DNA of 64,000 nucleotides from Candidatus Obscuribacteraceae bacterium (GCA_044226015.1 JBGAHS010000004.1:224001-288000); one strand, 5' to 3'. Shown: positions 31,768 through 54,481, numbered from the stretch's first letter. Notes: generated from the letters alone by a model not told the origin. Program-made: numbers and translations.

Positions 31768-33039
31768 CTATCTCAGGCTGAGCGCAGGTTCCGGGCGAGA
31801 AACTGGAGCGAATTTTGACTTTAGTGTTTCATGCCACGAATTCCAGATTTCAATTGCCTGTTCAGAACTGAGATAAATAGAACTGCTTCGTTTTGAGTGT
31901 GAGCCTGCCAGCGACTGGGTGATTGAACCTTGTGAGTTTAGCGTCGGAATTAGCTCGGAGAAGTATTTGAATGCTTGTGAGCCAACTATCGTTAGCTTGG
32001 ATACGCCAAAGCTTATTCTGGCTAGTTTCACCCCTGGTGTATCTGCCAGTGAATTCAAAATGCCTTCTCCTGAAGCTTTATTGCTGCAAGACAGAATGTA
32101 ACGCAAGACAGTCCCAGCTCCCTGCAGTTCGCGTTTCTCGACTATGTTAACTGAGCCGGCGGCGACTCGGACTATTTTTTCTATCTCTGAGATCTGGCAC
32201 GCAGTATCGTCGATCTGTAAATCGAGCAGGGCGTAGTCGTTTAGTATGGCAATTCCGCTCAACTCTGGGCATGCCGATTGTAATTTGCTAACAACGGTTC
32301 CAGAATTTGCGACATTGAAAACATTTCGGATGCGAATGTCTAATCCATTTTCATTAGCGCATTCAACTGCTCTTGGATGTATTACTTGCGCTCCGTTGGC
32401 GGCTAGTTCGAGGCAGTCTTCATAAGATAGTTTTTCGTGCTGAATAGCACCATTAATAATATTTGGGTCTGCGCTGAAGATTCCATCTACGTCAGTATAT
32501 ATCTCACATTCGTTGGACCCAATAGCTGCGCAGATAGCAACCGCAGATGTATCTGAGCCGCCTCGTCCTAATGTTGTTATGTCGCCCTGGCTCGTCACTC
32601 CCTGAAATCCGGCAACTACGATTACGTCGTTTTCTTGAAATGCGTCAAGTATTTTTTCTTTGTTGATACTCAGTATTTCTGCATTTCCGTAATTGGCTTC
32701 AGTGACAATTCCCAATTGAGTTCCGGTGAAAGACTTTGCCTTGATGCCGTGATCTTTGAGAATAATACTAAGCAAAGCGATTGTCTGTTGCTCTCCGCAA
32801 GACAGTAGTACATCGAGCTCGCGGCGGTCTGGCTCATCTGCGCAAAGCTCAGCCAGCTGAACTAAGCTGTTTGTGTGATCACCCATGGCAGAAACGATTA
32901 CCACGGTTTGGTTCTTATCGCAGTAGCTCGAAACTATCTGCGCCACGTGCGCGAGGCGCTGTGGGCTTTTGACGGATGTGCCACCAAACTTAAGCACTTT
33001 TATTTTCTTGTCTTCTGTCATTTTAATTCTCTTCTCCAT
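31768..33039 (-). CDS. Aspartate kinase
   Basis: KFGGTSV, VSAMG, RELDVLLSCGE, VAGFQG, TTLGRGGSDTSA, YTDVDG..ADP; divergent C-terminal ACT region. Confidence 0.92.
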   Translation of the reverse strand: MEKRIKMTEDKKIKVLKFGGTSVKSPQRLAHVAQIVSSYCDKNQTVVIVSAMGDHTNSLVQLAELCADEPDRRELDVLLSCGEQQTIALLSIILKDHGIKAKSFTGTQLGIVTEANYGNAEILSINKEKILDAFQENDVIVVAGFQGVTSQGDITTLGRGGSDTSAVAICAAIGSNECEIYTDVDGIFSADPNIINGAIQHEKLSYEDCLELAANGAQVIHPRAVECANENGLDIRIRNVFNVANSGTVVSKLQSACPELSGIAILNDYALLDLQIDDTACQISEIEKIVRVAAGSVNIVEKRELQGAGTVLRYILSCSNKASGEGILNSLADTPGVKLARISFGVSKLTIVGSQAFKYFSELIPTLNSQGSITQSLAGSHSKRSSSIYLSSEQAIEIWNSWHETLKSKFAPVSRPEPALSLR

Positions 33040-33053
33040 CTGGTCTTAAAGTT

Positions 33054-34250
33054 CTAGACTGCGATTTTGCTTGCACGTTCTGCAAAGCAAATCGCGTAAT
33101 CGATGTCGTTTATGAGGTCATCGGCGCTTTCTATGCCCACCGATAAACGCACGAGTCCATCCACTATTCCAAGTTGATCTCTAACTTCTTTGGGAATCGG
33201 AGCGTGTGTCATGCTTGCAGGATGGCAGAGGAGTGATTTGACACCACCCAGACTCTCGGCCAGTTGGAAAAGTTCGGTGCTGTTAACGAAGTCTCTGGCT
33301 GCGGCGAAGCCGCCTTTTAGCACAAACGAAACGACTCCGCCGAATCCCTTCATCTGTTTCTTTGCAAGAAGATGCTGGGGATGGCTCTCAAGCCCCGGAT
33401 AAAAAACTCTGTCAACGAGCTTATTCTCACTCAGGAAATTTGCGACTAATGTAGCATTTCTTTCGTGTTCTTTCATTCTCAACGAAAGCGTTTTAATTCC
33501 ACGTAGTGTTAAGAACGAGTCGAAGGGTCCGGGCACCGCGCCGGCAGCATTTTGAATGAATTTCAGTTCCTCATATAGGTCTGCGCGATTGGTGATTATG
33601 GCACCGCCTATGATATCGCTGTGTCCGCTCAGGTACTTTGTTGTGCTATGAACGATTATATCTGCGCCGAGTTCAAGTGGCTTTTGAAAATATGGCGTCG
33701 CAAAAGTATTGTCTACGGCAAGCAGTATATTTTCTCTTTTGCATATTGCGCTTATTTCTTCTATGTCCGCAAGGTTTAGAAGCGGGTTAGTGGGTGTTTC
33801 GATCCACACCAGTTTTGTGTTGCTTTTTATTGCATTTGCAATTTCTTCGGGTACGCTGGCATCGACGTAGCTAAAGTCAATATTGAATTTGCGTTTTACT
33901 CGTTCAAATAATCTATAAACACCACCATAAACGTCTTTGCCTACGATTACATGATCTCCGGCTGAAAGTATGTCAGCTACGATTGATACAGCCGCGAGCC
34001 CCGATGCGCAGCCAATGCCGAACTCCGCTCCCTCAAGTGAGGACAGGCAAGACTCTAGAGCGCTTCTGGTTGGATTATGGCTGCGTGCATACTGATACCC
34101 TTTGTTTTTACCCAACTCATCTAGAACAAAAGTTGATGTTTGATAGATTGGAGTTATCAGCGCTCCTGTTGCTGCGTCTTTTTCTTGTCCTTGATGAATA
34201 GCCAGAGTTTCGAAGCTATATTGTTGGTTTTTGTTGCGTAGTTTGCTCAT
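33054..34250 (-). CDS. PLP-dependent transsulfuration enzyme (cystathionine gamma-synthase/lyase, MetB/MetC family)
   Basis: PIYQTSTF, YARSHNPTR, ETPTNP, DNTFATP, HSTTKYLSGHSD (PLP lysine), AESLGG, RLSVGIE. Confidence 0.93.
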   Translation of the reverse strand: MSKLRNKNQQYSFETLAIHQGQEKDAATGALITPIYQTSTFVLDELGKNKGYQYARSHNPTRSALESCLSSLEGAEFGIGCASGLAAVSIVADILSAGDHVIVGKDVYGGVYRLFERVKRKFNIDFSYVDASVPEEIANAIKSNTKLVWIETPTNPLLNLADIEEISAICKRENILLAVDNTFATPYFQKPLELGADIIVHSTTKYLSGHSDIIGGAIITNRADLYEELKFIQNAAGAVPGPFDSFLTLRGIKTLSLRMKEHERNATLVANFLSENKLVDRVFYPGLESHPQHLLAKKQMKGFGGVVSFVLKGGFAAARDFVNSTELFQLAESLGGVKSLLCHPASMTHAPIPKEVRDQLGIVDGLVRLSVGIESADDLINDIDYAICFAERASKIAV

Positions 34251-34261
34251 TGAAAATCTCC

Positions 34262-34297
34262 AAAAGAAAACGCCCTTCCCGGAAAGAGAAGGGCGTT
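34262..34297 (-). terminator. Attenuator terminator hairpin (3:4)
   Basis: Minus strand AACGCCCUUC-ucuuuccgg-GAAGGGCGUU-UUCUUUU, ending about 12 nt before the ATG at 34250. Confidence 0.88.
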
Positions 34298-34319
34298 GTG
34301 TGCTCAGTAATCTAAAGAC

Positions 34320-34406
34320 TTATCTGAACCCGGACGACAACACACCTTCCCGCTGGGGAGGCATTGGCATGTTCATCATCATCATTGAGTTCGTCATGCA
34401 GGTCAT
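34320..34406 (-). CDS. Met-rich leader peptide MTCMTNSMMMMNMPMPPQREGVLSSGFR
   Basis: 28 codons with 8 ATG, including a run of four; GAGAG just upstream; lies directly 5' of a Met-pathway operon. Confidence 0.85.
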   Translation of the reverse strand: MTCMTNSMMMMNMPMPPQREGVLSSGFR

Positions 34407-34577
34407 TATGCTCTCGATTTCGGAAATTACAAGCGAGAGAATTCTTATTGGTAACATTTCGGAATAATTTTTTGGAAGATCCATATATGTTATTGAGTGC
34501 ACAATCGTTGACTTTCGCAAGTGGCTAGCTGCTGCCAGGAAAAGAAGAGAATAGTGGGTTCTGCTGGTGTTAAGTTC

Positions 34578-35063
34578 TTAGCTATTCTGTCGCTTCAGTT
34601 GAATCTCGACTCTCACTTCTTCGGGTGAAGGTGCGCAGCACGCAGACTTCTTCGCCATTGGAGCATCACTTGAGCTCACCTCATTGTCGTCACCATATAC
34701 GGTGGATTCACCGGTGGTGAGAAAAGTTTCCCAGGCTATGCCTTGTGGATCTACTACCCATGCTTTTTCCGACTTGGCATAACAACAAGTGGTCGCACCT
34801 TCATCCAGAACCTGCATGTTTGCTTGTTTTAGGCGGGAGGAAACTTCTTGAAGCTCTTCTGTGTTTTCAACTTGAACGCCAAGATGGTCTAGCCCCGGTT
34901 CTCTGCCTCGAGCTGAAATTGCAAAATTCACGCGGGGATCATCTAGCATCCATTTTGCGTAGTCTTGCTTCGAAACCGAAGGTCCGGTGCCGAAAAGATT
35001 TGAATAAAACTCGGTGGATTTTTGCAAGTCCTCAACTGCCACATGCACGTGTAGTCTTTTCAT
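34578..35063 (-). CDS. ArsI/CadI family VOC metalloenzyme
   Basis: MKRLHVHVAV, YAKWMLDDPRVNFAIS, LDHLG, TTCCYAKSEKAWVVDPQGIAWETF. Confidence 0.88.
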   Translation of the reverse strand: MKRLHVHVAVEDLQKSTEFYSNLFGTGPSVSKQDYAKWMLDDPRVNFAISARGREPGLDHLGVQVENTEELQEVSSRLKQANMQVLDEGATTCCYAKSEKAWVVDPQGIAWETFLTTGESTVYGDDNEVSSSDAPMAKKSACCAPSPEEVRVEIQLKRQNS

Positions 35064-35362
35064 TAGCATTTGCCTCCATTGTCAGCGCAGCAATTCTCAA
35101 GCAAAAAGTTGATGAGTGTTTGCATGTGCGCATAATTTGCTGAATATATGATTGAACGACTTTCTCGCCGAGCAGATATTAGTCCTGCATTGGTCAGTTC
35201 CTTTAGATGGAATGACATCGTGGCTGGTGGCATTCCAAAATGTGTACTCAGATCGCCAGCCGCCATTCCTGCGGACCCTTGTCTCACCAAGAGTCGGAAA
35301 ATTTCCAGACGTGTTTCTTGTGCCAATGCCGCCAGGGCGTTGACTGCGTTGTTCGTTTTCAT
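35063..35362 (-). CDS. arsR: ArsR/SmtB family repressor with C-terminal Cys pair
   Basis: LAALAQETRLEIFRLLV, TMSFHLKEL..AGLI, RSIIYSANY, LLENCC...C; stop overlaps the arsI-like start. Confidence 0.88.
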   Translation of the reverse strand: MKTNNAVNALAALAQETRLEIFRLLVRQGSAGMAAGDLSTHFGMPPATMSFHLKELTNAGLISARRESRSIIYSANYAHMQTLINFLLENCCADNGGKC

Positions 35363-35512
35363 ATTTCCAATAATATCGAAATGTTGTTTCTTGGTCAAGC
35401 CCTTTCGAGTGTATTAAAATGGTGGTTTTTGAAGAAAATGGAGCAGAGTAGTTCGAAAAAGAATAATTTGGACCCATTTTGAAGAAATTGGACCCAGGTC
35501 GAGTTTTTTTTT

Positions 35513-53535: not shown

Positions 53536-53612
<77 letters not shown>

Positions 53613-54407: not shown

Positions 54408-54481
54408 TGGAGCGGGTAGCGGGAATCGAACCCGCGTGTGCAGCTTGGAAGGCTGCCGTTCTACCATTGAACTACACCCGC
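54408..54481 (-). tRNA. tRNA-Gly (TCC)
   Basis: GCGGGTGTAGTTCAATGGTAGAACGGCAGCCTTCCAAGCTGCACACGCGGGTTCGATTCCCGCTACCCGCTCCA. Confidence 0.97.

Follow-up and report, generated by a model that had tools for sequence, protein, structure and literature searches.

A conserved methionine-codon leader ahead of a metB-like and aspartate kinase operon in Candidatus Obscuribacteraceae, a probable ribosome-mediated transcription attenuator

Bacterial methionine genes are textbook examples of control by repressors, SAM riboswitches or T-boxes. In a 64,000-nucleotide stretch of a Candidatus Obscuribacteraceae genome (GCA_044226015.1 JBGAHS010000004.1:224001-288000; the whole stretch is called the window here), a metB-like gene on the minus strand is preceded by a short open reading frame (uORF) crowded with Met codons and by an intrinsic terminator. 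The question that this locus raises is whether transcription of Met genes may also be attenuated through Met codons. Met is an awkward signal for an attenuator, since it is also the first residue of any leader peptide. Our results suggest that the element is very probably a ribosome-mediated transcription attenuator, which would sense charged elongator Met-tRNA ahead of a metB-like/aspartate kinase operon. An initial annotation of the window had proposed an attenuator, and this interpretation is supported by the conservation, the covarying stems and the lack of a SAM riboswitch or T-box match. The host family lies within Candidatus Obscuribacterales, which are uncultured relatives of cyanobacteria.

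The first gene of the operon (33054..34250, minus strand) encodes a MetB/CGL-family PLP enzyme of 398 aa, which matched PRK07811 at cut-off with 513 bits, and a Shine-Dalgarno (SD)-like GGAG precedes it at 34258..34261 on the same strand. It is followed by an aspartate kinase gene (31768..33039, minus strand; 423 aa, TIGR00657 above cut-off). The target had been annotated as metB/metC-like; the metB-like part of this description held, and the operon also contains this second aspartate kinase of the genome. The other copy lies in a hom-thrC-thrB-lysC-like cluster on contig C6, and hom, thrB and metH are all encoded in the genome. As the genome holds, in addition, a CBS-linked paralogue of the MetB-like enzyme together with the hom-thrC-thrB-lysC-like cluster and metH, the regulated pair looks Met-dedicated, and it is likely that the metB-like gene and the second aspartate kinase form a dedicated entry to Met, made of an aspartate kinase and a transsulfuration enzyme. 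The same pairing is known from E. coli metBL, where metB stands with a Met-dedicated aspartate kinase; that operon is under MetJ/SAM control, whereas the present genome has no MetJ match.

The product of 33054..34250 is likely a cystathionine gamma-synthase (CGS), judging from its sequence matches. The solved structures closest to it carry a cystathionine gamma-lyase-like (CGL-like) label, so its specificity stays putative. MetX (TIGR01392) and MetA (PF04204) were searched for in 104 family genomes and matched in none, and for this reason the enzyme may use O-phosphohomoserine, by analogy with the plant CGS, whose substrate this is.

To see whether such a leader occurs in relatives, as the initial annotation had proposed, 90 loci around MetB-like homologues were collected, comprising the best-scoring family matches, paralogues and loci of other families. 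Orthologues were chosen by protein score and gave 58 loci from 18 genera, with lysC downstream in 54, a contig end in three and another gene in one. A promoter, an ATG 6 or 7 nt after it, a uORF with Met codons and a hairpin were present in 58/58 orthologous loci across the 18 genera; the uORFs have 22-34 codons with 1-6 internal Met, and the hairpins range from -15.3 to -33.1 kcal/mol. Removal of six duplicates left 52 distinct leaders, in which kin are not independent. The combination of promoter, Met uORF and terminator was seen in 0/32 of the other homologue loci, a weak control because most of these loci (23) are internal genes that follow CBS. A lysC-linked locus of another family (L086) also had no leader.

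Beyond this set, the loci of more distant metB/CGL homologues (L101-L174) included one in 74 with a three-Met short upstream ORF, found in a Peregrinibacteria record (L136) with a weak terminator. In a Magasanikbacteria record (L145), a CGL-family gene has a Cys-rich short ORF in front of it. By eye, and with ATG, GTG and TTG starts considered, hom, metH, the second metH-like gene and cbs showed no codon-biased leader, and a degenerate Met-codon pattern searched across 21 genomes of the phylum returned mostly noise.

The window leader was indeed found to contain the annotated Met-rich frame, running on the minus strand from ATG 34406 to the stop at 34320 (28 codons, with 8 Met among the first 15). 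The start, on the other hand, probably lies elsewhere. A predicted sigma70-type promoter places its -35 box at 34427..34432 and its -10 box at 34405..34410 (both minus strand). In alignment A3, which aligns by sequence alone 31 leaders picked from the 52 to span the genera, a TTGAC-type -35 box is conserved and four columns of the -10 box are invariant in 31/31 rows. ATG 34406 overlaps this -10 box, and the GAGAG (34415-34411) that had been annotated ahead of it sits in the promoter spacer. An ATG at the 34406 position recurs in only 23/58 loci, where it belongs to the -10 box, and this start was rejected. The invariant ATG of the alignment is the one that follows the -10 box by 6 nt (25 loci) or 7 nt (33 loci) in all 58 orthologous loci; in the window it is ATG 34397. 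Since this spacing is so short and an SD-like word precedes the uORF ATG in 1/58 loci, the uORF is likely leaderless, with transcription beginning at its own ATG 34397. It would then consist of 25 codons plus stop (34320..34397, minus strand), with Met at codons 1, 5-8, 10 and 12, and the control codons are the six Met among codons 5-12 (34362..34385, minus strand).

The genome-wide signal for leaderless starts is modest: 14 long ORFs begin 6 nt past a -10 box, compared with 2-7 at distances of 1-5 and 7-15 nt. When 125,495 short ORFs of this genome were scanned for promoter- or SD-led, codon-biased frames followed by a terminator, 27 hits were obtained, of which the Met leader ranked first and was the sole leaderless one, being promoter-led with no SD. 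Among 86 short ORFs that start 6-7 nt after a strong promoter, five have a terminator, and two form a duplex with the terminator arm of -20 kcal/mol or below, namely the Met leader and one that precedes an ABC exporter.

An ArsR-family regulator and an ArsI/CadI-family gene adjoin the operon directly upstream in the window (34578-35398, minus strand), and binding of Cu(I) by Met-rich motifs is well established. The uORF might accordingly encode a metal-binding micropeptide or serve as a Cu/Ag-sensing uORF linked to arsR-arsI. We regard this as barely conceivable and rejected it, as relatives differ in the upstream neighbours but always keep the metB-like gene downstream, the uORF stands behind a promoter of its own, and only the Met positions of its peptide are conserved. 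Elsewhere in the window, two tRNA genes occur on the minus strand (53539-53612 and 54411-54481), the first with a CAT anticodon and initiator-like features.

When each of the 18 genera is represented by a single leader, Met makes up 71/270 of codons 2-16 against a background of 1.9%, and the ATG triplets fall 71/0/0 by frame. Between the start ATG and the last codon of the Met block, 31/31 aligned rows keep the reading frame, and their indels preserve it. Internal Met codons number only one or two in 6/52 distinct leaders. Thr, Asn, Ser, Pro and Arg are also mildly enriched, 1.5-1.9 times.

These figures bear on a multivalent attenuator, in which Met would be the main signal and Thr codons, or Lys/Arg codons in one genus, would also exert control, an arrangement that would suit an aspartate kinase operon. 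Thr accounts for 29/270 of codons 2-16 (1.9 times, nominal p 8e-4) and occurs in runs in genera g54 and g3, and genus g15, with one or two internal Met, has Lys/Arg codons nearby. However, the window leader has a single Thr codon, the non-Met enrichments are small and alike for the unrelated Asn, Ser, Pro and Arg, and Thr synthesis is served by its own hom-thrC-thrB-lysC-like cluster. We therefore consider multivalent control unlikely; it is a modification of the attenuator explanation and does not exclude it.

The RNA structures expected of an attenuator were examined in the window leader and across the family. The annotated terminator was confirmed (34262..34297, minus strand), with a 12-bp stem at 34297-34269 that includes seven G-C pairs and a U tract at 34270-34262; in 49/52 leaders, at least five of the 8 nt that begin with the first T run are T. 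The protector 5' strand, region 1 (34356..34392, minus strand), has its core at 34364-34356 and an extension that takes in the Met run. The minimum-energy fold contains the annotated 1:2 hairpin, with 34364-34356 paired to 34351-34342, and this fold of the leader region has z = -2.96, with 0/200 shuffles folding as well. Region 2, the antiterminator 5' strand (34324..34351, minus strand), begins at +14 after the last Met codon, and region 3, the 3' strand (34286..34307, minus strand), includes the terminator 5' arm 34297-34286. The pairing of 34351-34337 with 34299-34286 proposed earlier was recovered as 7+7 pairs with one bulge, but the duplex is longer than stated and reaches 34324:34307.

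In an alignment-free comparison of the 18 genera, cognate 2:3 antiterminator duplexes averaged -26.4 kcal/mol and non-cognate ones -19.8 kcal/mol, a difference reached in 0/20,000 permutations, and the cognate partner ranked first of 18 for eight region-2 and six region-3 sequences. Within single leaders the duplex was matched by 0-5 of 300 shuffles. On A3, the 2:3 core was the best-paired helix scanned (89%). With the structure taken from one member's fold, it showed 47 both-side changes against 24.7 in shuffled alignments (0/500), and its covariation score was reached by 2/500 shuffles; two of five covariation measures on A3 were not above shuffles. The terminator showed 33 both-side changes against 15.6 (0/500). 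The covarying stems foreseen in the initial annotation were thus found for the terminator and the 2:3 helix, while the 1:2 hairpin, which forms locally in 50/52 leaders, covaries weakly (9/500 and 13/500 shuffles).

A terminator/antiterminator pair ahead of Met genes is also the usual riboswitch layout, and the leader might be an undescribed riboswitch for SAM or another ligand, or a protein-binding leader; in either case the ORF would be incidental. The frame-specific ATG triplets and the frame-preserving indels described above argue against this, and apart from the ATG triplets there are no conserved unpaired columns resembling an aptamer. The window and seven related leaders gave no Rfam match at gathering score, other SAM classes included, and a search up to E 10 returned sub-threshold generic terminator-like hits only. 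The initial annotation had named a SAM riboswitch or T-box as the identity that would speak against an attenuator; both were rejected on the lack of a covariance-model match, and SAM-I (RF00162), T-box (RF00230) and MetJ are also without a match throughout the genome, which is 92% complete. A riboswitch or protein-binding leader is highly improbable on this evidence.

The placement of region 2 is informative for the attenuator. In 52/52 distinct leaders it begins +9 to +20 nt past the last Met codon, and this puts it at the leading edge of a ribosome sitting on that codon. When a ribosome window was modelled on the pre-terminator transcript, the antiterminator probability exceeded 0.5 in 52/52 leaders with the ribosome no more than two codons before the last Met, in 45/52 on the last Met, in 3/52 three codons later and in 6/52 six codons later. 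In this prefix-fold model the E. coli attenuators behaved as the Met leaders did, with the antiterminator present on the control codons and lost just after them. With the ribosome at the stop codon, a windowed mask, which allows pairing across the ribosome, gave the antiterminator a probability above 0.5 again in 44/52, and masking of all 5' RNA gave 0/52. As 2:3 re-forms at the stop codon in the model, termination would depend on kinetics. In the full-length equilibrium fold, the terminator probability fell below 0.5 at a Met codon in 34/52 leaders (11/18 genera) and only to about 0.4 in the window leader. The thr, trp, his and leu leaders of E. coli showed no switch in this test, so it is non-discriminating, as true attenuators also stay terminated in it.

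The same results bear on a nascent-peptide arrest that senses a metabolite such as SAM, with the hairpins merely reading out the stall. TnaC, SpeFL and plant CGS1 are precedents for arrest-type sensing; the regulated gene here encodes a CGS-like enzyme, and many leaders have Met-Pro after the Met block. However, the Pro codon falls within the C-rich region 1, and at this place Leu, Arg, Thr or Ala is found in several genera. The C-terminal ends past the last Met show no common motif across the 18 genera, and the region 2 offsets fall in all three reading frames, which together argue against an arrest peptide; a conserved stall-site motif is absent, and the class was rejected. The modelled switch point, moreover, maps to Met codons. 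We judge peptide arrest to be improbable.

We infer stalling, readthrough and termination in the attenuator from the sequences and their predicted folds, as follows. When Met-tRNA is scarce, a ribosome would stall on codons 5-12 and cover region 1; region 2, freed in this way, would pair with region 3, the terminator would not form, and the operon would be transcribed. With ample Met, by contrast, translation would carry the ribosome across region 2, the 1:2 hairpin would form again in its wake, and the terminator would end the transcript some 135 nt after its first base.

The Met start codon remains to be accommodated in this scheme. For trp, failed initiation has been described to lead to super-attenuation (PMC1183508). 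In the Met leaders, the fold of the untranslated prefix favoured the antiterminator over the protector in 51/52 cases (median -7.2 kcal/mol, window -1.8 kcal/mol), in contrast to the four E. coli leaders, in which the protector was favoured (0.0, 0.0, -0.7 and 0.0 kcal/mol). The balance of 1:2 and 2:3 implied by the initial annotation needs revision accordingly, as the computed folds of the naked transcript put the antiterminator slightly ahead of the 1:2 protector in stability. If this preference holds in cells, failed initiation would give no super-attenuation, and its absence would suit Met because Met is needed for the start codon. In such a default-ON attenuator, both failed initiation for want of fMet-tRNA and stalling at internal Met codons would lead to readthrough. 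On the other hand, the computed refolding barriers (median 11.3 kcal/mol, window 12.7 kcal/mol) may trap the protector, contrary to a default-ON state. The start-codon problem could alternatively be solved by selective charging of initiator and elongator tRNAs; the principle is given in PMC1183508, and its application to Met would be our extension.

A sequence profile built from promoter and leader was searched over the family and class genomes to see how far this type of leader extends. It matched in 65/104 family genomes and in 29/151 class genomes, weakly outside the family. We fetched 20 family hits beyond the orthologue set and three of nine class hits from other families. All 20 family hits had the promoter-6/7 nt-ATG arrangement; three were Met leaders before an aspartate kinase or MetB gene (L219-L221), nine were Cys-rich, and the others preceded a PLP decarboxylase (one), ABC exporter-type genes (six) and RtcB (one). 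One genome (G006) carries two Met leaders, before the metB-like gene (L004) and before an aspartate kinase (L219), and the latter closely resembles the window leader.

The Cys-rich leaders are leaderless and followed by terminators in front of cysD-cysN (L227) and a desaturase-family gene (L229). Seven more Cys-rich leaders with terminators (L223, L224, L226, L228, L230, L231 and L234) stand before a protein of about 170 aa for which no Pfam or NCBIfam match was found. Leaderless uORFs without codon bias, each with a terminator, precede ABC exporter-type operons (G000:C4:88868 on the minus strand, L222, L232 and L235-L238), and they are candidate sensors of ribosome stalling by antibiotics on a similar scaffold. 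A leaderless uORF with a terminator is also found ahead of an RtcB RNA ligase (L233:410-1687). In another family (G040), two tandem Met-run leaders, each with its terminator, precede a MoaD/SAMP-like sulfur-carrier protein (L239:606-970, minus strand). Met-run leaders with terminators were further observed before a Melainabacteria-specific protein family (L240, L241, L242-L249, L259, L260, L270 and L271), in 12/30 loci and several with an SD-like word. This protein had no Pfam or NCBIfam match, and the ESM Atlas returned hypothetical Melainabacteria clusters only; a Met-related role such as uptake would be a guess.

The specificity of the control codons follows the gene, with Met before metB/lysC (L219-L221) and Cys/Met before cysD-cysN (L227). 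Profile match, promoter spacing and terminators are the grounds for placing the Cys, ABC exporter, RtcB and other-family leaders on the same chassis. It is conceivable, though we hold it only tentatively, that the Met leader is a default-ON attenuator on one leaderless chassis that was codon-swapped within Obscuribacterales for Met, for Cys and for general ribosome stalling; the ABC exporter and RtcB leaders would be the general stalling variants. Leaders with codons for other amino acids are present in the genome as well. Ahead of a trpE-like ORF (G000:C7:767278, minus strand), an SD-led leader that holds three Trp codons and is followed by a terminator is an ordinary trp attenuator. A leader with four Tyr codons and one Trp codon, also with a terminator, stands before an ORF read from its sequence as DAHP-synthase-like (G000:C9:287073, minus strand), and it resembles aroR of C. 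glutamicum.

The Met leaders share with E. coli trpL, thrL, hisL and leuL a short uORF with codons for the pathway product, the 1:2/2:3/3:4 layout and an intrinsic terminator, and they differ in sensing Met and in the likely leaderless start. Met control codons ahead of an aspartate kinase have been proposed before: Vitreschak and colleagues reportedly predicted in 2004 a Pasteurellales thrA leader that responds to Thr, Ile and Met. That leader is said to be multivalent and of the thr type with Met as a minor signal, whereas here Met is the dominant signal and a metB-like gene comes first.

The initial annotation knew of no characterised Met-codon attenuator. A search of full texts, largely openly available ones, yielded no tested case, and this part of the statement stands; predictions do exist, in the Pasteurellales thrA leader and in 'metL' of Streptomyces lividans (SLIV_29928; PMC8079986). 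The accessible portions of PMC2965389, PMC2659441, PMC3783181 and PMC6123439 contain no Met attenuator case. As the present leader probably is too, 'metL' is a leaderless short ORF before Met-related genes, here metNIQ; its codons earned it the label methionine-dependent, as an annotation only in the section that describes it. Two internal Met stand in its peptide beside Cys and many Thr, and the paper states that it lacks a typical Rho-independent terminator. The genes behind it serve transport and not synthesis. The mycobacterial polycysteine sORFs (Ms5788A; bioRxiv 10.1101/834739) are comparable to what is proposed here, as leaderless uORFs that respond to a sulfur amino acid via charged tRNA. 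They differ, as the preprint describes them, in that their control codons are Cys and act on translation through masking of the SD, with no terminator/antiterminator.

Taken together, the element is real and conserved across the family, and its function as an attenuator is likely. The 52 distinct natural leaders, each shorter than 200 nt, form a directly testable set; they predict an unusual phenotype for start-codon mutants and would be compact sensors of charged Met-tRNA. The leaders may also serve as annotation tools, since they suggest Met or sulfur roles for the Melainabacteria-specific family (12/30 loci) and for the MoaD-like protein behind the two tandem leaders. For the host family, in which MetA and MetX were detected in 0/104 genomes, they suggest that the MetB-like enzyme is the entry step of Met synthesis.
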